Source: Candidatus Rokuibacteriota bacterium (GTDB lineage: Bacteria > Methylomirabilota > Methylomirabilia > Rokubacteriales > CSP1-6). Taken from it: a stretch of 64,000 nucleotides of DNA. Below, one piece after another: positions 4,748 through 41,096 of the stretch (position 1 is its first letter; each line of letters opens with the position of its first letter). Below the pieces are notes generated by a model, which saw only the letters and a list, made by a program, of their open reading frames with translations, was not told the DNA's origin and ran no database searches. The DNA lies in the NCBI GenBank assembly GCA_003220685.1, contig QHTE01000048.1, positions 95,029 to 159,028 of the forward strand, in the 5' to 3' direction. Both the position numbers and the translations under genes were made by a program.

Positions 4748-5692
4748 ATGACAACCGTCGAGACCGCGCTGGGTCCGATCGCCACGACCGAGCTCGGACC
4801 CACCTTGATGCACGAGCACGTCGTCACGCGCTCGCCGGGCGTGCAGGAGAACTGGCCCCACCTCTGGGATCGCAACGCCATCCTGAGCATCGCCGAGCGC
4901 AAGATGGCCGAGCTCTACCGCCGCGGGATCCGCTCGATCGTCGACCTGACCACCGTCGATCTCGGCCGCGACATCGATCTGATCCTCGGGGTCGCGCGCC
5001 GCTCGCGTGTGCACATCGTCGTCGCGACCGGCGTGTGGTGGATGCCGCAGCGCTACTTCAGCGCCCACGGCGTCGACGCGGTGGCCGATCTGTTCATCCG
5101 CGACATCACGCAGGGGATCGGCACCAGCGGCGTGAAAGCCGCCATCATCAAGTGCGCCACCGACACGGCCGGGGTGACGCCGGTGATCGACAACGTCCTG
5201 CGCGCTGCCGCCCGCGCCCAGAAAGCGACCGGCGTGCCGATCTCGACGCACACCTGGGCGGCCGGCCGTACGGGTGAGCTGCAGCAGGCGATCTTCGCCC
5301 AGGAGGGCGTCGATCTGCGCCGCGTCATCATTGGCCACAGCGGTGACAGCGAGGATCTCGGCTACCTCCGCGGGCTGATGGAGCGCGGGAGCACGATCGG
5401 GATGGACCGTTTCGGGCTCGAGAGCTTCCTGTCGACGCCGAAGCGGGTCGAGGTGCTGGCGCGCCTCTGCGCCGAGGGCTACGCGGGCAAGATGGTCCTC
5501 TCGCACGACGCCAACTGCTGGACGGACATGCTCTCCGAGGAAGCCAAGCTTCGGACCCGGCCGCAGTGGCACTACAACCATATCTCCGACGACATCCTCC
5601 CGGCGCTCCGCAAGGCGGGCGTCAAGGAGGATCAGATCGAGCAGATGCTCATGCGGAATCCCCGGGCGATCTTCGAGGCGAAGAGCGCGTGA
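4748..5692 (+). CDS. phosphotriesterase family protein (PTE/PLL-like amidohydrolase)
   Basis: 314 aa. 'GPTLMHEHV' is the N-terminal His-x-His metal motif. The rest shows a TIM-barrel amidohydrolase pattern ('..IIGHSGDS..', '..VLSHDANC..'). Confidence 0.85.
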   Translation: MTTVETALGPIATTELGPTLMHEHVVTRSPGVQENWPHLWDRNAILSIAERKMAELYRRGIRSIVDLTTVDLGRDIDLILGVARRSRVHIVVATGVWWMPQRYFSAHGVDAVADLFIRDITQGIGTSGVKAAIIKCATDTAGVTPVIDNVLRAAARAQKATGVPISTHTWAAGRTGELQQAIFAQEGVDLRRVIIGHSGDSEDLGYLRGLMERGSTIGMDRFGLESFLSTPKRVEVLARLCAEGYAGKMVLSHDANCWTDMLSEEAKLRTRPQWHYNHISDDILPALRKAGVKEDQIEQMLMRNPRAIFEAKSA

Positions 5693-6028
5693 CGCGGCTC
5701 GTCCTCGTCGCCGCTCTGGTCGTTGTCCTCGGCGCCGTCGAGGCGGGCGCCGAGCCGACGGGCTCTGCGCTTCCCGGGCTCGAGCCCTACGACGAGCTCA
5801 TGACCGCGCTGCTCAAGAAGTGGGACGTCCCCGGCGCCGGGCTCGCGGTCGCCCGCGGGGGCAGGCTGCTCCTGGTGCGGGGCTACGGCCTTCGCCTGGG
5901 TCGTCACGTTCAATGGCCGTCCCCAGGACAAGAACGGCTTCAGAGGCGATGTCGACCGCGGTTTGGCGGAGGCCAAGCGCAGGGTGAAGGCGTGGGCGGA
6001 CGGCGATCTGTTCGGACGCCACCAGTGA
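5689..6028 (+). pseudogene. remnant of a beta-lactamase-related serine hydrolase (internal deletion plus frameshift)
   Basis: GTG at 5689 overlaps the PTE stop (GTGA). The N-terminal stub is a signal peptide plus 'LLKKWDVPGAGLAVARGGRLLLVRGYG'. From about 5888 the +1 frame reads 'AFAWVVTFNGRPQDKNG...WADGDLFGRHQ*', a typical family C-terminus. About 300 aa of core are absent. Confidence 0.5.
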
Positions 6029-6034
6029 GGCATC

Positions 6035-7015
6035 ATGGCTGATATCCCGATCACCCTGACCTGCGCCGACTACGCGCGCGTCATGCCGCTCGCGGTCGGT
6101 CACGTGAAGCCCGCGAACATCGCGCTCACGGTGATCCTCGGCAGCCGCGGCTCGTGGCCCGCGCGCGCCGAGATGCTCCGGCGCGCCGTGCAGGACCCGG
6201 CGGTGCAGGGCGGTGAGTGGTCGATGGCGCAGTACCTCTACCGCATCGACAACGGCGACCGCCGCTACGTCGGCATTCCCGTCTTCCCGCTGCGCAACTT
6301 CACGGCGCGCGACCTCTACATCCGCCGAGGCGGTTCGATCAGATCGGCGGCCGATCTGGCGGGCAAGCGCATCGGCATGTACAGCTACACCGCGAGCGGG
6401 TCCATCTGGTACCGCCACTTCCTGCGGTTCATGGGGCTCGACCCGTCGGCGATCGAGTGGTGGATCGGCGACATCGATACGCCGTGGTCGGCGCCGATGG
6501 ACCAGAGCCTGCCGCCCGGGGTGAAGGCGCCCGCCAGGGGGCGCTCGTTGTCGGACATGCTGATCGCCGGCGAGCTCGAGGCGATCTACAGCCCGCCGCG
6601 CCCGGCGGCCTATCACCCGAGGACCGGCCCGATCGTGCGCCTGTTCCCGGACTTTCGCCTGGTCGAGCAGGAGTACTTTCTCAAGACGGGGGCGTTTCCT
6701 CCGCAGCATCTGATCGTGCTCAGGCGCGAGGCGTGGGAGGCGAACCGCTGGATCGCGCGAAGCCTCACCGAGGCGTTCAGCGCCGCCAACGAGTGCTTCA
6801 CCGCCGCGCAGAAGGGCTTCCCGTACGCGACGCCGTGGCTCGAAGCCGAGCTCGAGGACACGGCGGCGGTGATGGGAGAAGACTTTCACCCGTACGGACT
6901 CGAGCGCAACCGGGCGCAGATCGACACGTTCGCGGGCGAGGCGTTCCAGCTGGGCCTGACGAGCCGGCAGATCACGCCCGAGGAATACTTCGCCGATTAC
7001 CTCCAGGGAGGTTGA
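6035..7015 (+). CDS. NMT1/THI5-like periplasmic-binding-fold protein (4,5-dihydroxyphthalate decarboxylase-like)
   Basis: 326 aa with no signal peptide. 'ITLTCADYARVMPL..G.V.P' at the N-terminus and 'GKRIGMYSYTASGSIWYRHFL' resemble proteins annotated as PhtD-like (from memory). Confidence 0.6.
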   Translation: MADIPITLTCADYARVMPLAVGHVKPANIALTVILGSRGSWPARAEMLRRAVQDPAVQGGEWSMAQYLYRIDNGDRRYVGIPVFPLRNFTARDLYIRRGGSIRSAADLAGKRIGMYSYTASGSIWYRHFLRFMGLDPSAIEWWIGDIDTPWSAPMDQSLPPGVKAPARGRSLSDMLIAGELEAIYSPPRPAAYHPRTGPIVRLFPDFRLVEQEYFLKTGAFPPQHLIVLRREAWEANRWIARSLTEAFSAANECFTAAQKGFPYATPWLEAELEDTAAVMGEDFHPYGLERNRAQIDTFAGEAFQLGLTSRQITPEEYFADYLQGG

Positions 7016-7022
7016 GCGAGCC

Positions 7023-7985: not shown

Positions 7986-7994
7986 GCCCCTTCG

Positions 7995-10178
7995 CTACAC
8001 CAGCGTGACGTTCTTGAGCGGCAGGGTGCGCACCGGCTTGCCGGTCGCGGCGAAGATAGCGTTGAGCACCGCGGGCGTCACCACGGAGATCGTCGGCTCG
8101 CCGACGCCGCCCCAGAAGTCGTGCGACGGGACGATCACGGTCTCGACCTTCGGCATCTCGGCCAGGCGCAAGAGCTGGTAGCGGTCGAAGTTCAGCTCTG
8201 TCATCCGCCCGTTCTGCACCGTGCACTCGCCGTAGAGCGCGGCGCTCAAGCCGTACGCGACCGAGCCTTCGACCTGGGCGGCGATCTGGTCGGGATTGAC
8301 CGCATGGCCGCAATCGAGCGCCAGCACCATGCGGTGCACCTTGACCTTGCCCTCACCGCTCACCGAGACCTCGGCGATTGCCGCGGAGTAGCTGCCGTAT
8401 CCCATGAACTGGGCGATCCCACGATGCACGCCGGCCGGCAGCGGCTTGCCCCAGTCGCCCTTGGCGGCCGCGGCGTTGAGGACGGCGAGGTGCTTGGGAT
8501 GCTTGCTCATGAGGGCGCGGCGGAACTCGAGCGAGTCGGCGCCTGCGGCCCTAGCGACCTCTTCGATGAAGCATTCCATATAGACGGCGTTCTGATTGGT
8601 GTTGACCCCGCGCCAGGGCCCGACCGGCACGTGCGTGTTGCGCATCACGTACTCGATGAGCAAGCTCGGCACGGTGTAGCCGAGCTGCGCGTCGCCGGGC
8701 TTGTCCGTGTATCCCTGGAGCTGGCGGGCGTCCTGACCGTTCGTGACCAGCGCCGGGTTCACGAACGCGTTGATCGACTGGCCCGAGATGCGAACGTGCA
8801 GTCCGACGAGCGCGCCCTTGTCGTCGAGGCCCGCGGCGAGCTTGCACTGCGAGATGGGCCGGTAGAAGTCGTGCCCCATGTCCTCTTCACGCGACCAGAT
8901 CATCTTGACGGGGACATCGGGGAAGTGCTTGGCGATGTTGACGGCCTGGCGGACGTAATCCTGATTGCCGCCTCGCCGGCCGAAGCCGCCGCCCAGGTCG
9001 TGCCGGTAGACCTCGCACTTCGCCAGCGGAACCCCCGACTGCTCGGACAGGGCGGCCAGCGACGCCTCCGAGTTCTGCGTCGCCACCCAGCACTCGGCCC
9101 GCTCGGCCGAGAGCTTCACCGTGCAGTTCATGGGCTCCATCGTCGCGTGCGCGAGGAACGGCGTGCCGTACACCGCTTCGACCTTCTTCGCCGCACCCTG
9201 GATCGCGGCGATGGCGTCGCCTTCGTTGCGGAAGGCGTAGACGTCCTTCGCCGCCAGTCCCTCCTCGAGGTGCTTGCCGATCGTCGCGCTCGACTGCGAG
9301 GCGCCCGGTCCTTCGTCCCAGACGATCGGGAGCGCCTCGAGCGCCGACCTGGCCCGCCACCACGTATCGGCGACGACCGCGATCGTCGAATCGTTCACCT
9401 TGACGACGCGGCGAACGCCGGGCCGGCCCGAGATCTTCGCCTCATCGTAGCTCACGAGCTTGCCGCCGAACACGGGGCAGGCCTTGATCGCCGCGTGCAG
9501 CATGCCCGGCAGCTTCACATCGATCGCGAACACCTTGCTGCCGTCGAGCTTGTCGGCCGTGTCGAGCCGCTTCATCGGCTTGCCGGCGATCTTCCACTCC
9601 TTCGGATCCCTGAGCTTGATGCTCTTGAGGTCCGGCGGCGTCAGCTTCGCGGCGGCCGCGGCGACCTTGCCGTAGGTCGTCCTGCGCCCTGTGCCGGCGT
9701 GAGTGATGACCCCGTCGGCGACGCTGACCTCGGCGACCGGCACCTTCCACTCATCGGCCGCCGCCTGCAGCAGCATCATGCGCGCGGCCGCGCCGCCGCG
9801 GCGGACGTAGTCGTGCGAGGTACGGATGCCGCGGCTGCCCCCGGTCGCCATCTCGCCCCAGACGCGCTCGCGCGCGAGGTTCTGACCGGGGGTGATCGAC
9901 TCGGTGGCGACCTTCTTCCAATCGCACTCGAGCTCCTCGGCGACGAGCTGGGCCAGGCCGGTCCGCGTCCCTTGCCCCATCTCCGAGCGCGCGATGCGAA
10001 TCACGCAGGTGTCGTCCGGCTTGACGACGACCCAGGCATTGACCTCGGCGGCGGCTGCGGTGCCCTGGGCCTCGGCGGCTCTGAGTCCGAGCGGCATGCG
10101 GATCCCGACGGCCAGGCCGCCGCCCGCGGCGGCCGTGCCGACGATGAAGCGACGTCGAGAGAGCTTTATGTCTTTCAT
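7995..10178 (-). CDS. molybdopterin-dependent aldehyde oxidase/xanthine dehydrogenase family large subunit (IorB-like), Tat-exported
   Basis: 727 aa. Twin-arginine signal 'SRRRFIVGTAAAGGG'. 'GGGFGRRG' and the Mo-hydroxylase domain order are typical of isoquinoline oxidoreductase beta-type subunits. Confidence 0.9.
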   Translation of the reverse strand: MKDIKLSRRRFIVGTAAAGGGLAVGIRMPLGLRAAEAQGTAAAAEVNAWVVVKPDDTCVIRIARSEMGQGTRTGLAQLVAEELECDWKKVATESITPGQNLARERVWGEMATGGSRGIRTSHDYVRRGGAAARMMLLQAAADEWKVPVAEVSVADGVITHAGTGRRTTYGKVAAAAAKLTPPDLKSIKLRDPKEWKIAGKPMKRLDTADKLDGSKVFAIDVKLPGMLHAAIKACPVFGGKLVSYDEAKISGRPGVRRVVKVNDSTIAVVADTWWRARSALEALPIVWDEGPGASQSSATIGKHLEEGLAAKDVYAFRNEGDAIAAIQGAAKKVEAVYGTPFLAHATMEPMNCTVKLSAERAECWVATQNSEASLAALSEQSGVPLAKCEVYRHDLGGGFGRRGGNQDYVRQAVNIAKHFPDVPVKMIWSREEDMGHDFYRPISQCKLAAGLDDKGALVGLHVRISGQSINAFVNPALVTNGQDARQLQGYTDKPGDAQLGYTVPSLLIEYVMRNTHVPVGPWRGVNTNQNAVYMECFIEEVARAAGADSLEFRRALMSKHPKHLAVLNAAAAKGDWGKPLPAGVHRGIAQFMGYGSYSAAIAEVSVSGEGKVKVHRMVLALDCGHAVNPDQIAAQVEGSVAYGLSAALYGECTVQNGRMTELNFDRYQLLRLAEMPKVETVIVPSHDFWGGVGEPTISVVTPAVLNAIFAATGKPVRTLPLKNVTLV

Positions 10179-10179
10179 G

Positions 10180-10638
10180 TCACGCCTGCTTCCGTCCGGC
10201 CGCCATGTGCACCGCCTCCCGGATGCGCTGATACGTGCCGCAGCGGCAGATGTTGGTCATGGCGTCGTCGATGTCGTGATCGGTCGGTTTTGGCTTTCGC
10301 TTGAGGAGAGCCGACGCCGCCATGATCTGCCCGGACTGGCAGTAACCGCACTGCGGCACGTCGAGCGCCGCCCAAGCTTTCTGGACGGGGTGAGAGCCGG
10401 TGGCCGACAGGCCTTCGATGGTGACGATCCGATCCGTGGCCTTCACGCTCCCCACGGGAAGGACGCAGGTGCGCACGACCTGGTCGTTGATGTGCACCGA
10501 GCAGGCGCCGCACTGCGCGACGCCGCAGCCGTACTTGGTGCCGGTCAGGCCGATCTGCTCGCGGATGACCCAGAGGAGCGGTGTGTCGGCTTCAACCTGC
10601 ACGTCACGTACCCGCCCATTGATATTGAGCTTTGCCAT
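10180..10638 (-). CDS. (2Fe-2S)-binding small subunit of the Mo-hydroxylase (IorA-like)
   Basis: 152 aa. Cys clusters '[11 protein letters not shown]' and 'CGYCQSG...CRCGTY'. It ends 1 nt upstream of the large-subunit start. Confidence 0.9.
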
Positions 10639-10669
10639 CAGCGTCCTCCCGTGGCGCGATCCTCGCAGA

Positions 10670-11518
10670 TCACCGATGCTCGAGCGAAACCTGCTCGGCG
10701 TACGAGGCGCGGTAGCCCTCGTAGGAGCGGGCGTAGGCGGCGCGGGCCTGCTCGTCCATGTCGGCTTTCGGTGCCGGCTCGAGCTCGAAGTGGCCGTACG
10801 TGTCGACCCCGCGGACGAGCATCGCCGGAGTCTTGTGCTTCACGCCCAGATGCCCGACCGAGGTCGGGACGTAGCTGATCGCCAGACCGATGCGGCGGCC
10901 GTGCGAGCGATTGGGCTCTGAACGGTGCAGGCAGAGCGTGTGGTGCAGCGAGAACTCGCCCGCGCGCAGGGGAGCGTGGACCGCGGGCGCGTCGTCGACC
11001 TCGCCGACGATCGCCTGGCCGGCGCGGTTCACGCTGCCGGCCACGACGCCGGCGCGATGCGGCCGCTGGCCCCCGTGATGACTGCCGGGCAGGAACTCCA
11101 TGCAGCCGTTCTCCGCCGTCGCATCGGTCAGGGCGAGCCACGCGGTCACGTGCACGTACGGGCGTAGCCCGAAGTAGGTCGCGTCCTGGTGCCAGGCGGC
11201 GATCGCCGCGCTCTCGGGCTCCTTGATGAACCACGTCGAGGTGTAGACGAGGATGTCCGGGCCGATCAGGTCCTCGACGGCGTCCAGGATCGCCGGATGA
11301 CGCGTGAGCGCGTGCACCCACGACAGCAGGACGTGCGTACGCGACCGGTAGCGCGCGTCGGTCCGGTCGGAGGTGAGCGGTCCACCCACCGTCGCCTCGA
11401 ACGCCTCGAGCTTTCGAAGGCAGGCGGCGGCTTCCCCGCGCGTGAGCGCGGCGTTCGGCGAGAGGAATCCGTCGCGCGCGTAGGCGTCGACCTGGGCCGG
11501 CGACAGCGTTTTCGGCAT
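10670..11518 (-). CDS. phytanoyl-CoA dioxygenase (PhyH) family Fe(II)/2OG oxygenase
   Basis: 282 aa. 'WHQDATYF..', '..[11 protein letters not shown]..' and '..[13 protein letters not shown]' match the PhyH HxD...H pattern. Confidence 0.85.
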
Positions 11519-12052: not shown

Positions 12053-12093
12053 GCCGTCCTCCCCAGTGAGGTGCTGGTGCGCATGGTAGCAGA

Positions 12094-13296: not shown

Positions 13297-13335
13297 GCCG
13301 AGGAAGTATAATCCCTGGGCCACGGGAGGGTCGGG

Positions 13336-14223
13336 ATGAAGATCGGCGTGATCTTTCCTCAGACCGAGTGCGGCACCGACGTCGGCGCCATCGCCGAGTT
13401 CGTCCGCGCCGTCGAGGCGATGGGCTTTGACCACCTCTTCGTCGCCGATCACGTCCTGGGCGCCGACCCGAGGTTTCATTCGCACCCGTCGCTGGTCAAC
13501 TACTCGCACGAGAGCGTGGTCCACGAGTCGCTGACGTTGATGGCCTACTTCGCCGCTGTGACCCGGCGGATCACGCTGGCGACCGGCATCTTGATCCTGC
13601 CGCAGCGGCAGACCGTGCTCGTCGCCAAGCAGGCGGCCGAGATCGACGTGCTGAGCGGCGGCCGGCTGCGCCTCGGGGTCGGCGTGGGCTGGAACGCGGT
13701 CGAGTTCGAGGCGCTCAACGAGACGTTCGAGAACCGGGGCCGGCGCAGCGCGGAGCAGGTCGCGGTCATGCGCGCGCTGTGGACGCAAGAGGTCGTCGAC
13801 TTCCGCGGCGAGTTCCACCGGATCGATCACGCCGGGTTGAATCCGATGCCGATCCAGCGGCCGATTCCCGTCTGGTTCGGCGTGGGCAGCCGCGACCACG
13901 CGGTGCCGCCCGAGGCGGCGCTCAGGCGGATCGGACGGCTCGCCGACGGGTGGAGCCCGAACTTCACCCCGGACGACCAGGGGCGGGCGCTCGTCGCGCG
14001 CGTGCACGGCTACGCGCGCGAGGCGGGCCGCGATCCCGACCGGATTCCGCTCGAAGGACGCATCCGTCTCGCCGGCCAGAGCCCCGAGGGCTGGACGAAG
14101 CAGGTGGACGCGTGGAAAGCCATCGGCGCCGCCTCGGTCATCGCCGAGCCGCGCGGGGCGGGCCTCAAGTTTCCGCAGGGACATCTCGACGTGCTGCGCC
14201 GGTTCAAGGACACGGCCGTCTAG
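13336..14223 (+). CDS. LLM-class (luciferase-like) F420-dependent oxidoreductase
   Basis: 295 aa. 'MKIGVIFPQTE...FDHLFVADHV' and 'LSGGRLRLGVGVGWN' are typical of the probable F420-dependent LLM family. Confidence 0.85.
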   Translation: MKIGVIFPQTECGTDVGAIAEFVRAVEAMGFDHLFVADHVLGADPRFHSHPSLVNYSHESVVHESLTLMAYFAAVTRRITLATGILILPQRQTVLVAKQAAEIDVLSGGRLRLGVGVGWNAVEFEALNETFENRGRRSAEQVAVMRALWTQEVVDFRGEFHRIDHAGLNPMPIQRPIPVWFGVGSRDHAVPPEAALRRIGRLADGWSPNFTPDDQGRALVARVHGYAREAGRDPDRIPLEGRIRLAGQSPEGWTKQVDAWKAIGAASVIAEPRGAGLKFPQGHLDVLRRFKDTAV

Positions 14224-14250
14224 GCCGGGAGCCAAGCCAGGAGGACGACG

Positions 14251-17264: not shown

Positions 17265-17330
17265 TCTGGGCCGCGGGCTAGTCTACAGCACTCGTCACCA
17301 CGACTACGAACCCCGGAGCGGAGGCTCTGA

Positions 17331-18929: not shown

Positions 18930-18938
18930 CCGGACGGC

Positions 18939-27632: not shown

Positions 27633-27686
27633 GCGGGAGCGCCTGCGCGTCCGCCCCGAAGGTCAGCGCCTCCCGGCGGCCCCCGG

Positions 27687-28568: not shown

Positions 28569-28586
28569 GTCTCCCTCGTCCTCCTC

Positions 28587-28898
28587 CTAGAGAGCCACCG
28601 AGAGTCCCGCGTCGACCGTCAGCACCTGGCCCGTGACGGCGGTCGCGCTCGGCAGATCGGTGATGTCGAAGGCCGTCGCGAACGCGCCGGGAATGCTCTT
28701 CGCCACCGCGTCGGCTCGCTGCGCGTCGCGGCCGTTGATCCCGACGACGGCGCCGGCGGCCGCCATGCCCCGCGCGATCTCGAGCCCGAGCCCCCGGGTC
28801 GCGCCGGTGATCAGCGCGACGCGGCCGGTGAGCGAGAAGCGTTCGAGCCCCGATCCGAGCGGACGCGTCATTGACAGGCGTCTCTCCGATTCTGACAA
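28587..28898 (-). pseudogene. short-chain dehydrogenase/reductase remnant (in-frame internal deletion)
   Basis: 103-aa ORF. SDR N-terminus 'LTGRVALITGATRGLGLEIARGMAAAGAVVGINGRD...AFDITD' is joined directly to the SDR C-terminus 'AVTGQVLTVDAGLSVAL'. The ~150-aa catalytic core (S...YxxxK) is missing. Confidence 0.55.
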
Positions 28899-28932
28899 TA
28901 GGCTACCTCATCGGGGGGAAAGGTGTGACGCG

Positions 28933-29638
28933 ATGACGGCCACGAGGACCCGCAAGGACTTTTCCGTGTTCGACTGCGACAGCCACGTCGTGGAGCCGCC
29001 GGCGGTCTGGGGCGAGTACGTCCCGGCCCGAAGCCGCGCCTGGATCAAGACGCAGTTCTGCTCCCACACCGACAGCGACCTCCTCTTCATCAACGGGCGC
29101 GTGGTGCCGGCGGCGCGCGAGCGCTCGAACGCCGCCGAGGTGGGCTGGGCCCGCTGGGACAAGCGCGAAGTCGGCAAGCTCACTCCCGGCACCGCGGCCT
29201 GGCAGGCGAAATTCGGACGCCTGCTGGGCTGCCGCGACCCCCGCGCGCGGCTCGACGACATGGACGCGCTCGGCACCGATCAGGTGATGCTGTTCCCCAC
29301 GTGGTGCGTCCGGCTGGCGCTGGTGCGCAGCGCGGAGGCGGCGACGGTGCTGGCGCGCGCCTAACGAGCGCTGCTTCATCGGCTTCGAGTCGGACGAGAC
29401 GCTGGTCTATCGGTTGTGGGACGTCTTCCAGGACGTCGCGATCTGGTCGTCGGACTATCCGCACCACGACGCGGAAGACGCCTGGGAAGGCCTGGGCCAC
29501 ATGGCGGAGCTCGGCGTGCCCGCCGAGGCGCAGCGCAAGCTGATGGGCGAGAACGCCCGCCGGCTCTACGGCATCGAGCCCGTACTGGCGATCAAGGAGC
29601 GGATCGAGCAGTACGAGCCCGCGATCCTGCCCTGGTAG
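28933..29638 (+). pseudogene. amidohydrolase-2 (ACMSD-like) family remnant (internal deletion plus frameshift)
   Basis: N-terminal part 'FSVFDCDSHVVEPP...DALGTDQVMLFPTW...VLARA' stops at TAA 29362-29364. The +1 frame continues 'NERCFIGFESDE...IWSSDYPHHD...RRLYGI' to 29638. The middle of the barrel is missing. Confidence 0.6.
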
Positions 29639-29654
29639 AGCCGCCGAGACGGCG

Positions 29655-31277
29655 CTACGACCCCGGCCGGGGGATCGCGAAGATGGTCACCGTGGCCGGC
29701 GCCGTCGGCGCGCCCCAGAAGTACGTCGCGCTTCCCGAGGTGGCGGCCACGTATTGCCGGCCGCCCGCCTGATACGTCACGACGCCGCCGTTCATAGGAC
29801 CCGGAACGTTGAATCGATGCAGCACGGCGCCGTCACGCGCGTCGAGGACGAGGAACGTGCCATCGAGCTCGCCCGTGAAGAGCAGGTCGGCCGACGTCGC
29901 CACGATCGCGGCGAGCATCGGGCGGCGTGAGGCGTAGCGCCAGCGAATCGTTCCGGTCGACGCGTCGATGGCCGTCAGCCAGCCGCGCGCCTGCTCCAGC
30001 GGCTCGGGTGACCAGCGCCCGCCCACGTAGTTCCGGCCCGGCACGTGCTGGAGGGTCTCCGCCTTCCTGAAGACGCCGCACCACTCGACCGAATTCACGT
30101 AGAGCGTGTTGATGCGCGGATTGAAGGCGGGGCCGTTCCACTGCACGCCGCCCAGCACGCCCGGACACACGTACACGCCCGCCGTGGTGAGCGGGACATC
30201 GACGTTCTCCCGTCGGGTCACCGCTACCTGATAGAGGTGCGCGCGTGTCTCCCGATCCAGGACGTGGAGCAGCCCATCCTTGCCGACCACCGCCACGAGC
30301 TGACGCCGCACGCCGTTGACCTCGGCGCTGAAGAGGGGGCTCGTCTGGGTCAGGTCCCAGTCGTGGAAGTCGTTCGGCACGGCCTGGTAGTGCCACACGA
30401 GCTTGCCGCTGCGTACGTCGAGGACGACCATGGAATTCGTGTAGAGGTTGTCGCCGCGCCGGACGTCGGTGTAGAGATCGGGCGCCGGATTGCCGACGGG
30501 GACGTACAGCAGTCCCCTGGCGGGGTCGAGCGAGAACGGCGTCCACACCGCGCCGCCGCCGGTGAGCACGTCCGTCGCCGACCACGTCTCGGCGCCGGGC
30601 TCGCCCGGTCTCGGCCGCGTGTTGAATCGCCACACCTGTTCGCCGTTCTCCAGACGGAAGGCGCCGACCCACCCCTTGATGGGTACTTCGTTTCCCGCCG
30701 GCCCGGCGATCACCAGATCCTCGACGAGGACCGGCGGCATCGTGAAGGTCTCTCCGATGTCGCCGTTCGCCGCCGCCCGCTCCCAGAGGAGTCGTCCACT
30801 CTCGGCGTCGATCGCCAGGAGATAGCCGTCGAGCGTGCCGCGGACGATCTTGCCTTCCTTCACGGCGACGCCGCGGCTCTGCGGCCAGTTCTCTCGGGCC
30901 TTGGGCACCCAGTCGTGTCGCCAGCGAACCTGGCAGGTCGCGGCATCGAGCGCGATCGTGGCGTGTGAGGTGGTGAGATACATGACGCCGCGGTAGACGA
31001 TCGGGTTCGTGTGAAACGGGCGGATCCCCCCGATCTCGTACGAGCACACCGGCCGCAAGGACGGTGCGTTCTCGGGCGTGATCTGCGTGAGCTCGACGAA
31101 GCGCTGTCCGCCGTAGTCATGGTTGGGCAGCAGCCAGTCCGACGCGTTGGAGGCCGCGGCGTTGAGCTCTGCCTGGGTCGGTCCTTGCTGCGCGCCGCCC
31201 GGCAGCACAACGAGCCCGACGAGCAGCCCGCTGACCACGAGGGTGAGCCCCGGCCATCGCCTCCCCACGCGGGTCAT
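29655..31277 (-). CDS. PQQ-dependent dehydrogenase (quinoprotein, methanol/ethanol dehydrogenase family), secreted
   Basis: 540 aa from MTRVGRRWPGLTLVV (signal peptide). 'DWLLPNHDYGGQRF', 'GLLYVPVGNPAPD' and 'HDWDL' are eight-bladed PQQ propeller motifs. The upstream 250 aa of the ORF are junk. Confidence 0.85.
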   Translation of the reverse strand: MTRVGRRWPGLTLVVSGLLVGLVVLPGGAQQGPTQAELNAAASNASDWLLPNHDYGGQRFVELTQITPENAPSLRPVCSYEIGGIRPFHTNPIVYRGVMYLTTSHATIALDAATCQVRWRHDWVPKARENWPQSRGVAVKEGKIVRGTLDGYLLAIDAESGRLLWERAAANGDIGETFTMPPVLVEDLVIAGPAGNEVPIKGWVGAFRLENGEQVWRFNTRPRPGEPGAETWSATDVLTGGGAVWTPFSLDPARGLLYVPVGNPAPDLYTDVRRGDNLYTNSMVVLDVRSGKLVWHYQAVPNDFHDWDLTQTSPLFSAEVNGVRRQLVAVVGKDGLLHVLDRETRAHLYQVAVTRRENVDVPLTTAGVYVCPGVLGGVQWNGPAFNPRINTLYVNSVEWCGVFRKAETLQHVPGRNYVGGRWSPEPLEQARGWLTAIDASTGTIRWRYASRRPMLAAIVATSADLLFTGELDGTFLVLDARDGAVLHRFNVPGPMNGGVVTYQAGGRQYVAATSGSATYFWGAPTAPATVTIFAIPRPGS

Positions 31278-31490
31278 TCTCGTCCCCCCACCCCCCAAAG
31301 TTACCGGCGCACGCGCACGCGGCTGGCTCTCCGTTACCGCGCGGACGGCATGTGTGTCAAGGGCGTACCGGGCACCAGGAACTATGAGCGCCTCGCACGC
31401 TTGGGGCCGCTGCGGTATCATCCCGTTCTCGATACCTCGGTGAGCATTCGCGGCGAGGCCAGGACGTGATGGGACGAAAGGAGTAGCGCG

Positions 31491-33659: not shown

Positions 33660-33681
33660 TCGGAATCGGGCGCGACGATCC

Positions 33682-33713
33682 GACGCGGGGCAGCCCAGGA
33701 GCTGCCCCGCGTC
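33682..33713. terminator. perfect 13-bp inverted repeat (hairpin) between convergent genes; candidate bidirectional terminator
   Basis: GACGCGGGGCAGC-ccagga-GCTGCCCCGCGTC lies in the 79-bp gap between the stops at 33659 (+) and 33739 (-). There is no U-tract on either side. Confidence 0.4.
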
Positions 33714-33738
33714 GTCGTCGCCGACGTCCTCGGCGACC

Positions 33739-35448
33739 TTAGTAGTACGCCCCGAACGTCGTCATCTTCCCCACGTCCGGATACAGCACACCCGCCGCCG
33801 CCCTGACGGACGAGCGCGGCGTGTACCAGATCGCGCCGTCGCGCGTGATCGCGAGCTTCGGCTGATCCGTGGTCTGAGGCGTCGGGTAGTACGTGAATTT
33901 CTCGGTCCTCGGATCGAAGCGGATCAAACAGCCGCCCTGGCCGCCGTCGCTGATCCAGATCTGGTCGTGTCGATCCGGCCACACGTCGTAGGGCTCGGAG
34001 AAGGGCATGGGGATGTCGTACTCGACGATCCTGCCGGTTTTCGGGTCGAGCTTGCCGAGCTTGCCGCTGCTGAAGCCGCCGTACCAGACGACGCCGGCCG
34101 AATCGACCCCGAGTCGGCGGATCGTCGTCGGCTGCGTGCGCGCGTCGTACTCCGTGAACTTCTCGGTTCTCGGGTCGAACCGCGCGATCCTGCCCCGGCG
34201 GAACTCGGCGAACCAGACGTTCTCATCGCGGTCGAGGGCGATGCCGTAGGGCGCGGCGCCGGAAGTCGGAACTTTCCATACCCGGGCGGTCTCGGTCTTG
34301 CGATCCCACTTGCCGAGCATGTCGCCGCCGATCACGGTGAACCATACATTGTCCTTCGAGTCGACGATCGGCGTGTGGCCGCGAGCGCCCTGGCTCCGAC
34401 CGGTGGAGTCCATTGGATATCGGATCATCGAGCCCGTTTTGGGGTCGAGCCGGCCGAGGTGGAAGCCGACGGTCTCGGCCCAGAATACGTGGCCGGCGCG
34501 GTCGACGGTGAGACCATGCGGATCAGCCCTCGAATCGGGCATCGTGAAGTCTTTGAACTCGGCGGTGCGCGGGTCCACGCGACCGATCCGGTTGGGGATG
34601 CTGCGGTCGGTGTACCAGACGTTGCCGTCGGAATCGAAGTGCGGCTCCTGCGTCCGCCGCTGCTTGTTGGCCGCATCGAGCTGGCGGTCGAGCGGCAGGT
34701 AGTATTCGATGTACATCGCCTTGCCGAGCACGGTTTCGTCCACAGGGAACTCCGCGTCGACCTTCAAGGCGCGCTTCGTGCTGGTGGGACCGTAGTTCCT
34801 GGCGAGGTACGCGATCACGGTCTCGCGGTCCTTCGCGCTGAACGTGCCGGCGGGAATCATGGCGCCGCGCGGCGCCGTGGGACTCAGCATCAGATCTACG
34901 AAGTGGGTCCACTGTGTCTCGTGATAGGGCCGGCTCGGCAGGAAATTCTTGCCGTGGCAGTTCACGCAGGTCTTCTCGACGAGATCGCGGCCCGGACCGG
35001 CCGGATAGAGCTCGTCGTACGACACCAGGGTCGCGCCCTCGATGCGCGCGGAGAACCCGAACGCGCCCTGCTGCACGGGTTGTGCTGCTTCCTCGCGCAG
35101 TGAGAAGTTCAGCGTCTCTTTCGCCCCGACAGCAAGCGTGAGGCTCTTCGTCTCGGCGGCGAAACCCGGCTTGCGGACCGTGACTTCGTAGCGGCCGGGA
35201 AAGAGGTTGACGGCGCGGTAGCGCCCGCCGCTCGTGTAGACCATGAACAGGACGTTCTTGTCCACGTTCATGAGATGCACCGGCGCCGCCTTGAACGGCC
35301 TGGGCGCCTCGACCGTGCCCGACACGGCGGCCGTGCCCGCAATCGGCGCCGCGTCCTGAGCGCCCGCGGGCGCGATCGTCCTCGTTCCGCCGAGCATCGT
35401 CAGGCCGATCGCGAACAACGTCGTCAAGATTCGCCCCCTCGTACCCAT
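33739..35448 (-). CDS. secreted CarboxypepD_reg-like / CxxCH heme-c / Vgb-like beta-propeller protein, function unknown
   Basis: ATG 35448 with GGAGG about 9 nt upstream. Signal peptide, 'SGTVEA...GRYRAVNLFPGRYEVTVRKPGF', heme motif 'CVNCH', and repeated '..G.VW(F/Y)(T/A)...G.(I/L)GR.DP.T' blades. Confidence 0.7.
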   Translation of the reverse strand: MGTRGRILTTLFAIGLTMLGGTRTIAPAGAQDAAPIAGTAAVSGTVEAPRPFKAAPVHLMNVDKNVLFMVYTSGGRYRAVNLFPGRYEVTVRKPGFAAETKSLTLAVGAKETLNFSLREEAAQPVQQGAFGFSARIEGATLVSYDELYPAGPGRDLVEKTCVNCHGKNFLPSRPYHETQWTHFVDLMLSPTAPRGAMIPAGTFSAKDRETVIAYLARNYGPTSTKRALKVDAEFPVDETVLGKAMYIEYYLPLDRQLDAANKQRRTQEPHFDSDGNVWYTDRSIPNRIGRVDPRTAEFKDFTMPDSRADPHGLTVDRAGHVFWAETVGFHLGRLDPKTGSMIRYPMDSTGRSQGARGHTPIVDSKDNVWFTVIGGDMLGKWDRKTETARVWKVPTSGAAPYGIALDRDENVWFAEFRRGRIARFDPRTEKFTEYDARTQPTTIRRLGVDSAGVVWYGGFSSGKLGKLDPKTGRIVEYDIPMPFSEPYDVWPDRHDQIWISDGGQGGCLIRFDPRTEKFTYYPTPQTTDQPKLAITRDGAIWYTPRSSVRAAAGVLYPDVGKMTTFGAYY

Positions 35449-35493
35449 CGCAATGCCCCTCCGGTCCAACGTGTCCCTCGATCTACCCGTGAC

Positions 35494-36660
35494 CTACCAG
35501 AGACGCCGGCTCGCCAGACGTGCGCCCTCCGCGAGCATGCGGAACTTCTCCCACATGATGCTCGGGTGCACGCGCGCGGTCGCGAGCCCCTGCGCAAATC
35601 CACAGTCGACGCCGGCGATGACGTTCTCGCGCCCGACGAGCCGCGCGTAGCGCACGATCCGCTCCGCGATCAGCTCCGGGTGCTCGACGCAGTTCGTCGT
35701 GTGGGCGACGACGCCCGGGATGAGGATCTTGCCCTCCGGGAGCTTGACCCGCTCCCAGACGTGATACTCGTGCTCGTGGCGCGGGTTCGCAGCTTCGAGC
35801 GAGAAGGCCCCCGCCTTGATGCTCAAGATCACCGGCGCGATCTCCTCCAGCGGCGCGTCGGTCGTGTGGGGCCCGTGCCAGCTGCCCCAGCACATGTGGT
35901 AGCGCACGCGGTCTTCCGGAAGCCCGGCGAGCGCGTAGTTCAGCGCTTCGATGCGCACCATCGCGAATCGGCGGTACTCCTCGGGCGACGGCGCTGGATC
36001 CATCGAGTCGTACTCGGTCACCATGCGCGGGTCGTCGATCTGCAAGATGAAGCCGGCGTCGACGATCATCTTGTACTCCACCCTCATCGCGTTGGCGAGC
36101 GCCCCGAGGTAGTCCTCCTCGGTCTTGTAGAAGTGATTCGCGCGCTGCAATTCGATCGTCCCGGGCGCGACGGCGGGAATGAACGCCTCTTCGAAGCTCC
36201 GGCCGTGCAGCGCCGCCGTGAAGTTGGCGAGGTCCGTCTGGACCGCCGTCGAGCCGCGATAGGCGATCGGCCCGGTGCACATCGAGTTCGCCATCGAGGT
36301 CGTGCCGCCTTGCACGCCGCCCTCGATCTCGCGGTACGCCTCCGCGAATCGGCGCCGGTCCCGGCTCCTCGTCGTCCCGCCGCCGCGCCCGGGCAGGTCG
36401 TTGCGCGTCTCGAAGCCGGTGAGGCGATCGGTGATGTACTGCGCGAAGCCGGATTTCGAGTACTCGCCGTCGCTCGGGACGTCGATGCCGCACTCCTCCT
36501 GCATCCGCACGCCCTCGGCCACGTGACGGGCCAGGATGGCGCGGTCGCCGGCACTGAACGGGGCGCCGTCCGCTTTTCGGCGAAGTATCTCGACCATCTC
36601 GGCCGGCCGGACCAGGCTGCCGACGTGGGTCGTGAGGATGCGGCTCCCGCTGCGCTTCAC
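35494..36660 (-). CDS. cobalamin-independent methionine synthase (MetE) C-terminal-domain-like protein
   Basis: 388 aa from GTG 36660, which overlaps the upstream stop (GTGA). 'ILTTHVGSLVRP', 'HMCWGSW' and 'GVDCGF' match the MetE/UROD-like family. Confidence 0.8.
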   Translation of the reverse strand: MKRSGSRILTTHVGSLVRPAEMVEILRRKADGAPFSAGDRAILARHVAEGVRMQEECGIDVPSDGEYSKSGFAQYITDRLTGFETRNDLPGRGGGTTRSRDRRRFAEAYREIEGGVQGGTTSMANSMCTGPIAYRGSTAVQTDLANFTAALHGRSFEEAFIPAVAPGTIELQRANHFYKTEEDYLGALANAMRVEYKMIVDAGFILQIDDPRMVTEYDSMDPAPSPEEYRRFAMVRIEALNYALAGLPEDRVRYHMCWGSWHGPHTTDAPLEEIAPVILSIKAGAFSLEAANPRHEHEYHVWERVKLPEGKILIPGVVAHTTNCVEHPELIAERIVRYARLVGRENVIAGVDCGFAQGLATARVHPSIMWEKFRMLAEGARLASRRLW

Positions 36661-37163
36661 TGATAGGTTACCCCGGGTAGCGGATGAGCCACGGCCTCTT
36701 CGAGACTCTGGGCCCGGCGCCATTGCTCCGCCGGCCGGCTCTTGCCGTCCGCTCCGATCTGATCCATCGAGGCGTACAGCTCGATGTTGAACCCGTCGGG
36801 ATCCTTGAACTCGATGCCCGGATTGCCCCCCGGGCCACGACGTCCTTCGTAGACGATCGGCACACCCCTGGCGCGGAGAAACTCGCGGATCTGGAACAGC
36901 TCGGACACGGTGCCGACCTCCAGGGCGCAGTGGTGAAAGCCGGGTTGCCCCTCTCGGCGCGGCTCGAGGGGGCTCTCGGCCGGCACCAGCGCGACGGTGT
37001 GATGGTCCGACGCGTTGCGGAGAAAGACCATTCCACGCTCGTTGCGATCGGACACGTGGAACCCCATGATCTCTCCCCAGAACTTCGTGGTCCGCTCGAT
37101 GTCGCTCACCGTGAACACGACGTGGCCCAGTTTCTTCACCCTGACCGGTGTCTCGCGCGGCAT
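36657..37163 (-). CDS. VOC family protein (glyoxalase/bleomycin resistance/extradiol dioxygenase fold)
   Basis: 168 aa from MPRETPV with a GAGGAGGA RBS 7 nt upstream. 'KLGHVVFTVSDIERTTKFW' and 'GFHHCALEV' are VOC beta-alpha-beta modules. Confidence 0.8.
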   Translation of the reverse strand: MPRETPVRVKKLGHVVFTVSDIERTTKFWGEIMGFHVSDRNERGMVFLRNASDHHTVALVPAESPLEPRREGQPGFHHCALEVGTVSELFQIREFLRARGVPIVYEGRRGPGGNPGIEFKDPDGFNIELYASMDQIGADGKSRPAEQWRRAQSLEEAVAHPLPGVTYQ

Positions 37164-37336
37164 GTCTCGGTCCTCCTCGCGTCGTACGGTGTCCGTCATT
37201 TTGTGTCGGCGGCTGGGCGTCGTCAACAGCCGCCCGCATCGCGCCGATCGGGTCCGACACACAGGGTATACTGCGCCTCTGCACATTCGGCGCGACCGAG
37301 CGATATCGCCGAGCGCCTGCACAGAGGAGGAATCGC

Positions 37337-37610
37337 GTGCGTGCGACTGCCGATAACCTGCGACGTTTGACCGGCGCGATCGTGAAGGCGGGCGGGAGCG
37401 CCGCCGTGGAGGCCGACCTCGTCGCCGAGCACCTGGTGCGCGCCAATCTGATGGGCCACGACAGCCACGGCGTCGGCATGATCCCGACATACGTCCGCCA
37501 CCTGAAGGCCGGGCTCGTCGTGCCGAACACGCGCGCGCTGGGCCGAGATCCTCGCCGCGGCGGAAGCGGTCGGGATGTCGCGCGCCGAAGCCGCGGCGCT
37601 GGGCGCCTGA
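37337..37610 (+). pseudogene. Ldh_2 family (malate/L-lactate/ureidoglycolate dehydrogenase-like) remnant (internal deletion plus frameshift)
   Basis: GTG 37337 with an AGGAGG RBS. The N-terminal 'LRRLTGAIVKAGGSAAVEADLVAEHLVRANLMGHDSHGVGMIPTYV' is the Ldh_2 signature. After about 37538 the +1 frame gives a short C-terminus 'WAEILAAAEAVGMSRAEAAALGA*'. About 250 aa are missing. Confidence 0.5.
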
Positions 37611-37643
37611 TCCGCGTCGCCCTCGAATGACGGGACGCCGGCT

Positions 37644-38519: not shown

Positions 38520-40786
38520 GTGTCGAGCGCCGCCCTGACCCTCGGCGCCGTCACCGGCAGGTGGCGCGCGGCGGCGTCGCCCACGGCGGCGGCCACGGCG
38601 TTCGCAACCGCGGCGCCGACACCCGACGTTCCGGCCTCTCCGGCGCCCTTGACGCCGAGAGGATTCGAGGGCGCGGCGGACTCGTGGACGAGCAGCTCGA
38701 CCGCGGGCACGCGCGCCGCGGTCGGGATCGCGTAGTCCATGAAGGTGCCGGTGAGGAGCTGGCCGCTCGCGTCGTAGACGAGCTCTTCGAGCGTGGCGTG
38801 GCCGATGCCCTGGACGACCGCGCCTACCAGCTGGCCTTCGACGATCGTCGGATTGAGCGCGCGCCCCACGTCGCACAGGACGAAGTGCGTCTCGGGACGC
38901 ACCTCGCCGGTCGTCACGTCGACGCCCACCACGGAGAGGTGGACCCCGAACGAGCCGATGGCGCGCGTGGTTTCGTGACGCCACTCGGCCTCGAGCGGAC
39001 CGCCGGCGAGCGCGGCGATCTCGCGCAGCGAGCAGCGCCGGTCCGGCACGCCGCGCACGAAGGCGGCGCCGCCGTCGAGCTCGATGTCGGCCGCGCTCGC
39101 CTCGAAGTGTCGTGCCGCGAGCGCCGCGATCTGCTCGCGCAGTCGCGTCGACGCCTGGTACACCGCGGAGCCGGCCATCACGGCGGAGCGGCTCGCCGAG
39201 CTACCGACGCCGTGCGGCATCCAGCGCGTGTCGCCCAGGTGCACGGCGATGTCGCCCGGCGGCACCTGAAGGACCTCGGCGCAGACCTGGGCGAGCGTCG
39301 TCGGAAGCCCTTGACCGAGCGACGTGGAGCCCGCGGCCAGCTCGACACGCCCGTCGGCGGTCAAGCTGACCCGGGCGCTCTCGAACGGGCCGGTGCCCGA
39401 GGTCTCGATGACGGCCGCGAGACCGACCCCGTATCGCACGTCGCCGCCGGCGGCGTTGCGCGCGCGACACGCGGCGCGGCGCTCTTCGTAACGGCCGGCC
39501 TTCAGCGCGTGCTCGAAGATCGCGCCGAAGTCCTCACCCGCGAAGTCGGCGCTCCGTCCGGTGACCGCCCCTGCCACGGTGTCGACGGTGTGCGGCTCCT
39601 CGCCGGGCCGCGCGAGATTGCGGCGGCGGATCTCGGCCGGGTCGAGCCCCGAGCGCCGGGCGAGCAGATCGAGCACGCGCTCGCGCACGAACGTGCCCTC
39701 GTAGAAGCCCGGCGAGCGGACCGTGCCGGTCGGGGTCTTGGTGGTCATGACGCAGGAGACGCGGCAGCGATAGCTCGGCCAGCGGTACGGTCCCGGCAGG
39801 TACGAGGCCGTGAGCGCGGCGGCCCAGACGCCGTGCGTGCGGAGATGGCCGCCCATCACGTTGACGAGGACGGCGTCGAGCGCCAGCAGCCGCCCGCGCT
39901 CGTCGGCGGCCGCCGCCACCGACCACTGCTGCTCGCGCGAGTGATTGATCGAGAGAAAGTGCTCGCGTCGGTCCTCGACCCACTTGATCGGTCGGCCCAA
40001 GCGTCGCGCCAGGTGCGGGATCAGGAAGTCTTCGGGATAGAACTCGCCGCGCGCGCCGAACCCGCCGCCGACGTCCGACTCGGCGAAATCGATCCGCGCC
40101 TCGTCGACCCCGAGCATGCTCGCGAGCGTGCGGCGATTGAAGTAGGGAACCTTCGTCACGCCCCACACCGTCAGGCGCCCGCCGCCGGCCTCCCACTCGG
40201 CGAGCAGCCCACGCGGCTCCATGGGCGCCGCCGTCTGGCGCCCGATGGAGAGCCGGTCGCTCACGACGAACGCCGCGTCCCGCAGCGCGCCGTCGACGTC
40301 CCCGAGCGCGGTGGTCCACGAGTCGGCCACGTTGCCCTCGGGGAAGAGCGGCGGCCCGCCATCGCCCGGTTCGCCGGGGGTGACGAACGCCGAGAGCACG
40401 TCGTACTCGACGTCGACCTGCTCGCGCGCGTCGATAGCAGCGGCGCGATCGGTCGCGACGACGACCGCCACCGGCTGACCCGCGTAGCGGACCGTGTCGC
40501 CGGCCAGCGGCGGCTGGAGATAGGCCGCATGCGCCGGCTTGCCGGCCTGCCGAAGCGGAATCGTCGGCACGCCCGCGAGGTCGGCGGCTGTCAGGAGGGC
40601 CAGCACGCCCGGGCGGGCGAGGGCGCCCCGCCCGTCGATGCGGCGCAGGCGCGCGTGAGCGTGGGGGCTGCGCACGATGACCGCGTGCGCCATGCCCGGC
40701 CGGACCAGGTCGTCCACGTACCGTCCGCCGCCGACGAGCAGGCGCGGATCCTCGAGTCGCTTGATCGGGAGGCCGATGAACCTCAC
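38516..40786 (-). CDS. xanthine dehydrogenase/CoxL family molybdopterin-binding large subunit
   Basis: 756 aa. 'IKRLEDPRLLVGGGRYVDD' N-terminus, 'GGGFGARG', 'GQG..T' and 'GVKGAGEAGT' motifs. No adjacent 2Fe-2S or FAD subunit genes. Confidence 0.9.
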   Translation of the reverse strand: MRFIGLPIKRLEDPRLLVGGGRYVDDLVRPGMAHAVIVRSPHAHARLRRIDGRGALARPGVLALLTAADLAGVPTIPLRQAGKPAHAAYLQPPLAGDTVRYAGQPVAVVVATDRAAAIDAREQVDVEYDVLSAFVTPGEPGDGGPPLFPEGNVADSWTTALGDVDGALRDAAFVVSDRLSIGRQTAAPMEPRGLLAEWEAGGGRLTVWGVTKVPYFNRRTLASMLGVDEARIDFAESDVGGGFGARGEFYPEDFLIPHLARRLGRPIKWVEDRREHFLSINHSREQQWSVAAAADERGRLLALDAVLVNVMGGHLRTHGVWAAALTASYLPGPYRWPSYRCRVSCVMTTKTPTGTVRSPGFYEGTFVRERVLDLLARRSGLDPAEIRRRNLARPGEEPHTVDTVAGAVTGRSADFAGEDFGAIFEHALKAGRYEERRAACRARNAAGGDVRYGVGLAAVIETSGTGPFESARVSLTADGRVELAAGSTSLGQGLPTTLAQVCAEVLQVPPGDIAVHLGDTRWMPHGVGSSASRSAVMAGSAVYQASTRLREQIAALAARHFEASAADIELDGGAAFVRGVPDRRCSLREIAALAGGPLEAEWRHETTRAIGSFGVHLSVVGVDVTTGEVRPETHFVLCDVGRALNPTIVEGQLVGAVVQGIGHATLEELVYDASGQLLTGTFMDYAIPTAARVPAVELLVHESAAPSNPLGVKGAGEAGTSGVGAAVANAVAAAVGDAAARHLPVTAPRVRAALDT

Positions 40787-40812
40787 TGGAAGAGGGATGG
40801 TACCATCCGCTC

Positions 40813-41096
40813 GTGCAATGGGGGCGCACCGTCACCGTGATCGGCTGCCACGTCGGCGGCGAGGACAACCACGTGATCGTCGGCGGCGTGCTGCCGCCGC
40901 CGGGCGCCACGATGTTCGAGAAGAAGCGCTACCTCGAGACGGAGCGATCGCCGCCGAGGTCGTCGTGGGCGGACGGCCGGGCATCGTCCCCACGATCGCC
41001 GGGCAGGCGTGGATCACCGGCGTCTTCCAGCACGGCTCCAACCCGTCCGATCCCTTCCGCCACGGCTTCACGTTGCCCGACATGTGGTTCGCCTGA
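40813..41096 (+). pseudogene. proline racemase/4-hydroxyproline epimerase family remnant (internal deletion plus frameshift)
   Basis: N-terminus 'TVTVIGCHVGGEDNHVIVGGVLPPPGATMFEKKRYLETE' matches the family 'IDSHTGGEPTR.V.GG' pattern. From about 40945 another frame reads 'AIAAEVVVGGRPGIVPTIAGQAWITGV...DPFRHGF..*' (the family C-terminus), with its stop at 41094-41096. Confidence 0.55.

Follow-up and report, generated by a model that had tools for sequence, protein, structure and literature searches.

Five enzyme genes in a 64,000-nucleotide stretch of a Candidatus Rokuibacteriota bacterium genome (GenBank assembly GCA_003220685.1, contig QHTE01000048.1, positions 95,029 to 159,028; hereafter the window) survive only as their two ends. 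A beta-lactamase-like hydrolase, a short-chain dehydrogenase/reductase (SDR), an amidohydrolase-2, a member of the malate/L-lactate dehydrogenase family (Ldh_2), and a proline racemase each retain an N-terminal and a C-terminal stub joined directly, with the enzyme core missing. The deletions are real, being present in every population contig read, and relatives keep intact orthologues. The stubs are very probably young pseudogenes of one widespread soil Rokubacteria population, each produced by its own illegitimate (homology-independent) deletion of ~0.5–0.9 kb within a dispensable accessory enzyme gene. This is ordinary independent gene loss, and the reading of the pattern as something beyond ordinary decay, put forward in the initial annotation of this DNA, is not supported.

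The remnants lie where they were first annotated, as confirmed by Pfam matches, translation, and orthologue alignment:

5689-5893, plus strand: N-terminal stub of the beta-lactamase-like hydrolase, comprising a signal peptide and the first ~68 residues; Pfam Beta-lactamase, HMM positions 2-35 of 329.
5891-6028, plus strand: C-terminal stub of the same gene, the last 45 codons and stop in a different frame; the junction lies at 5891-5896.
28587-28638, minus strand: C-terminal stub of the SDR, ending ..VTGQVLTVDAGLSVAL and stop, 18 bp upstream of an LLM/Bac_luciferase gene (28568-27687).
28639-28898, minus strand: N-terminal stub of the SDR, with the TGxxxGxG Rossmann start; Pfam adh_short, HMM positions 1-71 of 195.
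28933-29363, plus strand: N-terminal stub of the amidohydrolase-2, 143 aa, with a stop codon created by the frameshifting junction; matches full-length orthologues.
29364-29638, plus strand: C-terminal stub of the amidohydrolase-2, 91 codons in the +2 frame; Pfam Amidohydro_2, HMM positions 231-289 of 289.
37337-37537, plus strand: N-terminal stub of the Ldh_2; Pfam Ldh_2, HMM positions 3-64 of 333.
37536-37610, plus strand: C-terminal stub of the Ldh_2, 24 codons and stop (RWAEILAAAEAVG..) in the +1 frame; ~757–793 bp are lost between the two Ldh_2 parts.
40813-40944, plus strand: N-terminal stub of the proline racemase, 44 codons; Pfam Pro_racemase, HMM positions 1-39 of 325.
40944-41096, plus strand: C-terminal stub of the proline racemase, 50 codons and stop in a shifted frame; Pfam Pro_racemase, HMM positions 282-325 of 325.

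The Pfam match of the beta-lactamase stub is weak, and its family is confirmed by alignment to a 420-aa orthologue in the closest relative. This stub sits within a co-directional run of a phosphotriesterase (PTE) gene, the stub, a 326-aa gene (at 6035), and an NHL gene; its start codon, GTG, shares bases with the stop of the PTE gene (GTGA), and its frameshifted open reading frame (ORF) ends at 6042, overlapping the start of the next gene. The SDR deletion removes 486 bp, or 162 codons, in frame, such that the adh_short part runs on into ..VTGQVLTVDAGLSVAL, and the stub heads an SDR-LLM pair. The proline racemase stub heads a series of proline racemase, hydrolase, and DUF1028, with its C-terminal part 16 bp upstream of an Abhydrolase_3 gene (41113-42141). 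Downstream of the amidohydrolase and Ldh_2 stubs the genes are convergent, with none co-directional. At 40813-42141 on the plus strand, the proline racemase N-terminal frame stays open past the frameshift into the Abhydrolase_3 gene; a gene caller could take the resulting 442-aa ORF for an N-terminally extended hydrolase.

All tests were comparative, drawing on relatives' genomes and on independent assembled contigs. The window's genome (G000) is a 6.09-Mb metagenome-assembled genome (MAG) of 137 scaffolds (N50 129 kb, ~70% G+C), scaffolded from short reads, with 87.6% completeness and 4% contamination. The window was searched as three 20-kb pieces against same-genus genomes, and syntenic DNA was then aligned. 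Breakpoints were placed by anchored ungapped projections onto the relatives' DNA, and stubs were checked by three-frame translation and Pfam. Five same-genus genomes were compared in detail: G014, the closest, with 89–91% DNA identity to the window, and G013, G011, G004, and G006, with 82–90%.

Full-length genes occupy the syntenic sites in related genomes. The relatives' extra DNA sits exactly at each of the five junctions and the intact orthologues are colinear, bearing out the initial annotation's view of clean single internal deletions:

40944, proline racemase: 739 bp extra in all five relatives; intact orthologue of 340 aa.
29363, amidohydrolase-2: 614–615 bp extra in all five relatives; intact orthologue of 439 aa.
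28636-28642, SDR: 485–487 bp extra in G011, G013, G004, and G006; orthologue of 256 aa (G006, from ATG).
37537 to 37643, Ldh_2: 742–759 bp extra by BLAST and ~793 bp by local alignment, in four relatives; orthologue of 350 aa.
5891-5896, beta-lactamase-like hydrolase: 923–928 bp extra in four relatives; orthologue of 420 aa.

At the SDR site G014 carries 1,710 bp extra, and looser ends of the BLAST high-scoring segment pairs in G011 and G014 give 984–987 bp at the beta-lactamase site. Full-length ORFs span each stub site in at least two relatives, with Pfam matches from end to end. Among them are SDR ORFs of 262 aa in G004 and G006, amidohydrolase ORFs of 451–453 aa in G014, G013, G004, and G006, and the 350-aa Ldh_2 of G006 (HMM positions 3-332 of 333); the Ldh_2 N-terminal stub is itself 85–91% identical to G011, G013, G004, and G006. 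Compared with the orthologue sequences, the lost segments contain the SxxK motif of the beta-lactamase, the YxxxK motif of the SDR, and both Cys motifs of the proline racemase, and they make up ~70% of the Ldh_2 and 47% of the amidohydrolase.

One relative, G011, was dropped as a witness of gene intactness, its ORFs being full of apparent frameshifts. In this genome (30 contigs, 66% complete) frameshifts are frequent in otherwise conserved genes (C24:379001-446000), a single 734-aa ORF joins the PTE and beta-lactamase genes, and both the SDR and the amidohydrolase gene are broken. These frameshifts look like indel sequencing error and therefore make G011 an unreliable guide to gene intactness.

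The same comparison reveals further deletions in the window:

4732-4750, plus strand: scar of a YqeC-family gene, after an HpcH_HpaI aldolase gene at 3973-4731 and before the PTE gene at 4748-5692.
44329-44411, no strand assigned: lineage-specific gap, with ~770–840 bp more in G011 and G014 and 4.7 kb more in G013.
44792-44842, plus strand: remnant of a second beta-lactamase/esterase-like gene, the last 16 codons and stop (QHKHVRHFIDLVYAAL).

The yqeC loss (~785 bp at 4742-4748) took nearly the whole gene: 759–785 bp are extra in G011, G013, G004, and G006, and only 132 bp, the 3′ end of the gene, in G014. The G006 ORF at this site has 255 aa and matches PF19842 YqeC over HMM positions 1-145 of 145; YqeC is an accessory protein of selenium-dependent molybdenum hydroxylases. 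Relatives have a GGAG ahead of the PTE start that can no longer be recognized in the window after the loss. The second beta-lactamase/esterase-like gene lacks ~1,070 bp measured against a 396-aa ORF of G014 only, and its putative family name was read from that sequence without Pfam. The 44329-44411 gap lies ~400 bp upstream of this remnant, and an 82-aa conserved small ORF (44423-44671) stands between the two.

The junctions recur in assemblies made independently of the window's genome. Exact look-ups with the 143-aa amidohydrolase stub and two flanking proteins each found at least 22–24 contigs in 38–40 index blocks, drawn from JGI soil metagenomes, ENA MEGAHIT (k141) assemblies, CRIT18 scaffolds, and two other NCBI MAGs (GCA_009771575.1 and GCA_009771655.1), with more than 10 samples represented. 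The same called stubs appear in all these contigs, the 94-aa SDR stub and the 97-aa Ldh_2 stub each in 10 of 10. Thirty fetched loci are 99.85–99.97% identical to the window. Junction 57-60-mers of the yqeC scar and of the beta-lactamase, amidohydrolase, proline racemase, and main Ldh_2 deletions are identical in 10 of 10 independent contigs; the SDR junction k-mer is present in eight of 10, and the two misses coincide with a single-nucleotide polymorphism (SNP) at 28625 in two contigs. Gene callers begin the SDR stub at its 94-aa start, which is why an exact look-up with a 103-aa, TTG-start version gave no match.

Mapping of the breakpoints leaves microhomologies of 0–5 bp. The overlap is 1 bp (A) at the amidohydrolase junction (29363/29364), 0–2 bp at the SDR, 0–1 bp at the proline racemase and likewise at the yqeC scar, and 5 bp (ACGCG) at the Ldh_2. 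For the beta-lactamase it is 1 bp with G004 as proxy, or up to ~5 exact bases in an imperfect 12-bp repeat with G013 as proxy. In agreement with the initial annotation, the six inspected breakpoint pairs differ in sequence and share no motif or terminal repeat (inverted repeats were not scanned), and no mobile-element remains were seen at the junctions.

The genome encodes a Ku homologue (PF02735, 113.5 bits, on contig C27 and cut off by the contig end) and LigD-type polymerase domains (TIGR02778 ligD_pol, three hits of 228–251 bits, all above the curated cut-off). Given the presence of these genes and the form of the junctions, end joining is a plausible source of the deletions. Blunt or 1–5 bp junctions, two-sided loss, and Ku and LigD-type genes are features shared with Ku/LigD nonhomologous end joining (NHEJ) or with alternative end joining, of which a RecBCD-dependent form is credited to Chayot et al. 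(2010) where PMC6054270 cites that work. Both the double-strand-break origin and the Ku/LigD joining would here be deduced from junction form and gene content.

A simple course of events best accounts for stubs of this kind. The deletions very probably arose on the terminal branch to this soil population, after the split from G014, its closest sequenced relative, with breaks probably repaired by end joining. Neighboring genes lie 0–20 bp away or overlap the start or stop of the dispensable gene, and a deletion that spares them must therefore lie inside that gene; both ends would survive for this reason. Such deletions would leave the neighbors' coding sequence, promoters, and ribosome-binding sites untouched and hence persist, the stubs themselves presumably being without function. 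The initial annotation took one-sided truncations to be a usual product of decay, which overlooks how spacers of 0–20 bp force deletions that spare the neighbors to be intragenic. Its proposal of deletional bias combined with selection survives in part: deletional loss filtered by packed neighbors is the best reading, and selection specifically for start/stop coupling is the part that is not supported.

A deletional bias in bacteria was reportedly described by Mira, Ochman, and Moran in 2001. Deletion-type pseudogenes and deletional bias are treated by Kuo and Ochman (2009, PMC2817411; 2010, PMC2916853) and Danneels et al. (2018, PMC6054270). As in these known cases, non-essential genes are eroded, junctions show little homology, neighbors are intact, and loss is lineage-specific. 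The pseudogenes of free-living Burkholderia, as described in PMC6054270, hold 42 deletions totaling 1,662 bp, mostly small, whereas each mapped event here is a single deletion of 0.49–1.07 kb.

Patterns of substitution and the distribution of the short forms bear on whether the stubs retain a function. Across the population contigs, 60 SNP sites were found in 22.4 kb. Their density is 4.6 per kb in the stubs (nine in 1.94 kb) versus 2.5 per kb elsewhere (p = 0.07), and by codon position they divide 3:2:3 in the stubs versus 12:11:26 in intact genes. Divergence to G014 at codon positions 1/2/3 is 0.091/0.067/0.229 for the stubs and 0.058/0.038/0.205 for intact genes. Most of the surplus at positions 1 and 2 comes from the N-terminal parts of the beta-lactamase and SDR, and signs of constraint persist in the proline racemase, Ldh_2, and amidohydrolase stubs; such uneven relaxation suggests that the deletions differ in age and that some are recent. 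Short forms occur in none of the five relatives, which have either the full gene or no gene, and a wider search of relatives for the short proline racemase also found none. The initial annotation had allowed that the short forms might be genuine conserved mini-proteins, an idea contradicted by their absence from all five relatives and by the full genes found there. Taken together, and with only weak tests of constraint, the evidence favors pseudogenes over mini-proteins.

The initial annotation also judged five such remnants in 64 kb to be far more than ordinary decay would give. Counting as an event any stretch of at least 150 bp that G000 alone lacks and at least three relatives possess in an all-against-all comparison, the window holds seven: the five stubs, the yqeC loss, and the 44329-44411 gap. 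An eighth, the second beta-lactamase/esterase-like gene, is seen by comparison with G014 only. Four random 20-kb regions of G000 contain 0, 3, 1, and 0 events, or 4 in 80 kb, a density from which that of the window (7 in 64 kb) does not differ significantly (p = 0.16), and the claim of an exceptional excess does not hold. Of the random-region deletions, one is an in-frame loss of 222 codons, two extend across a gene border, and one leaves a one-sided truncation; the N-plus-C-terminal form is thus one outcome among several. The in-frame case (666 bp, C46:36229) is specific to G000 and lies in a large PAS/GAF-type sensor histidine kinase; instead of a pseudogene, this could be a variant that has lost a domain and still functions. 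In the same regions G014 has about four deletions of its own versus ten for G000 (p = 0.18).

Similar remnants were also sought genome-wide by comparing non-genic space with the proteome of the same genome using blastx. The screen returned 587 fragment-like loci, many of them small genes or repeat-domain artefacts, and 35 N-plus-C-terminal calls, only ~9 of which look clean; it recognized one of the five known stubs as such a pair and gives a rough indication only. The deletions in the random regions and those of G014's own indicate that such loss extends across the genome and the clade.

Several observations weigh against independent neutral deletion as a full account of the stubs. The relaxation of constraint amounts to no more than a trend (p = 0.07), and it differs between stubs. 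The excess of deletions placed inside a single gene, at seven of 12 versus a fraction of ~0.32 expected for random placement, is marginal (p = 0.054). The case for an end-joining origin consists of gene presence and junction form. The independent contigs, at 99.85–99.97% identity, belong to one clonal population rather than to independent lineages and therefore prove the junctions, not independent evolution; contigs being the evidence, a minority full-length allele may also exist in the population. Finally, a broad neutral spectrum does not predict the lack of deletions of 150–480 bp described below.

All 12 mapped deletions in the window, C50, and C46 measure 486 to ~1,070 bp (mean 788, SD 162), and none falls at 150–480 bp, in a sample that is small (n = 12) and was partly chosen by the initial annotation. 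Within aligned blocks there is only one G000-specific deletion cluster of 6–21 bp, and the stubs are almost free of further small deletions. For the 11 events defined by at least three relatives, each placed in a 1.1-kb gene containing the deletion, the size gap has P = 7e-5 under a flat distribution and P = 1e-7 under a log-uniform one. A process of characteristic length, selection to remove most of a dead gene, or sampling may explain the gap; the view that selection removes dead-gene DNA is attributed to Kuo and Ochman (2010, PMC2916853).

A more novel reading, possible but rather unlikely, takes the size range at face value. Gene death in this lineage would come mainly from a process that deletes a characteristic length, ~0.5–1.1 kb, an example being break resection with subsequent joining by Ku/LigD or by alternative end joining. 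A dispensable gene of ~1 kb between needed genes would then take exactly one hit, and the leftover ends, at 0.3–0.7 kb, would be too short for a second and would persist as a two-piece stub. If true, such a process would explain the both-ends appearance, the missing 150–480 bp deletions, and the scarcity of small deletions in the stubs, and ~300–650 such scars would be expected genome-wide, as extrapolated from the 0.05–0.11 deletions per kb sampled. For slow-growing soil bacteria with NHEJ genes, the narrow size range poses a small question of mutational mechanism.

It is improbable that the remnants were kept by selection, whether their start, promoter, and stop regions drive or couple downstream genes or the stubs act as mini-proteins. 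Three stubs do shortly precede co-directional genes (the gene at 6035, the LLM gene at 18 bp, and the hydrolase gene at 16 bp), the SDR deletion is in frame, and the frameshifted beta-lactamase ORF still ends in overlap with the next start. For the amidohydrolase and Ldh_2 stubs, however, which point toward convergent genes, there is nothing to couple to, and coupling therefore cannot be the general reason that both ends were kept. Deletion lengths leave, on division by three, remainders of 2 for the beta-lactamase (923), 0 for the SDR (486), 2 for the amidohydrolase (614), 1 for the Ldh_2 (~793), and 1 for the proline racemase (739); the yqeC loss leaves 2 (785) and the random-region kinase deletion 0 (666). 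One of five stubs, or two of seven deletions when yqeC and the kinase are included, is thus in frame, which is chance level (~1/3 expected). The start/stop coupling suggested initially is unsupported on these two counts, the lack of a co-directional downstream gene at two of five stubs and the chance share of in-frame deletions. Moreover, each end retains 130–430 bp, far beyond the length required for a promoter or a ribosome-binding site, the short forms are confined to one population whose relatives have full-length genes or none, and stub SNPs show no codon-position bias. At the yqeC site the gene is gone whole, and so is the recognizable GGAG before the PTE start.

A dedicated recombination or excision system that cuts out gene cores, be it a site-specific recombinase, the excision of a mobile element, or programmed deletion, is more improbable still. 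The narrow range of all 12 mapped deletions, with none at 150–480 bp, speaks in its favor. Against it, the six breakpoint pairs reveal no shared motif or terminal repeat within the scope given above, and the microhomology is of a different sequence each time. The lost segments are ordinary, unrelated enzyme cores colinear with orthologues rather than inserted elements, and similar deletions in the random regions cross gene borders. The specific recombination process that had been listed among the possible causes accordingly finds no counterpart in the junctions, which have 0–5 bp of microhomology and no sequence in common.

There is next to no chance that the stubs are assembly artefacts, arising where contigs were collapsed, scaffold gaps closed, or strains mixed while the organism itself has the full-length genes: the genome is indeed a scaffolded short-read MAG of the stated completeness and contamination with 32 internal N-gaps, and junction support comes from assembled contigs rather than mapped reads, but the idea, raised in the initial annotation, is refuted by junctions and stub calls that are identical in 8–10 of 10 contigs per locus across different assemblers and more than 10 samples, and by microhomology far shorter than any assembler k-mer, from which repeat collapse cannot make the junctions. 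Collapse of N-gaps was likewise rejected as a source of the deletions, such gaps being kept as N elsewhere in the genome and numbering zero in the window's contig, and the junctions recurring in independent contigs.

Reading the stubs as pseudogenes has a practical consequence for annotation. Public gene calls list the fragments as ordinary small proteins assigned to adh_short (94 aa), Amidohydro_2 (74 aa), Ldh_2 (97 aa), and Pro_racemase (43 aa), and metabolic reconstructions of Rokubacteria MAGs that count Pfam matches therefore overstate enzyme content. A literature search on pseudogenes in Rokubacteria found nothing relevant. Current views of pseudogene formation are unchallenged by these results, which point to fast turnover of accessory catabolic genes in an uncultured soil lineage with large genomes. 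The sister species G014 has lost some of the same genes: its Ldh_2 is gone completely, and its yqeC was lost by a different deletion, the one that keeps the 132 bp of the 3′ end. A few bases past the left breakpoint of G014 are retained in the window, and on this thin margin the yqeC loss in G014 looks independent.

Throughout the genus, accessory catabolic genes come and go rapidly in this region. Several blocks are missing or replaced at the syntenic site in several relatives, including a PQQ dehydrogenase gene (29655-31277, in a flexible spot at 29640-31470), a 562-aa gene with MetE-like and glyoxalase genes (33660-37326), and a 2.7-kb block (7993-10670) that encodes a 727-aa molybdopterin oxidoreductase and a small partner. 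The stubs adjoin these flexible spots.

Two minor observations concern other genes in the window. On the plus strand at 13501-14217, an LLM/luciferase-like frame lacks the first ~56 residues and a start codon, and it is 50% identical to a 290-aa paralogue; relatives are colinear here, and the truncation, if real, therefore predates genus-level splits. The PTE gene has an 81-bp in-frame deletion (5018-5098) in one population contig (JGI 3300026540), shortening the protein to 287 versus 314 aa; the deletion lies between 4-bp CATC direct repeats and is a deletion polymorphism within the population.

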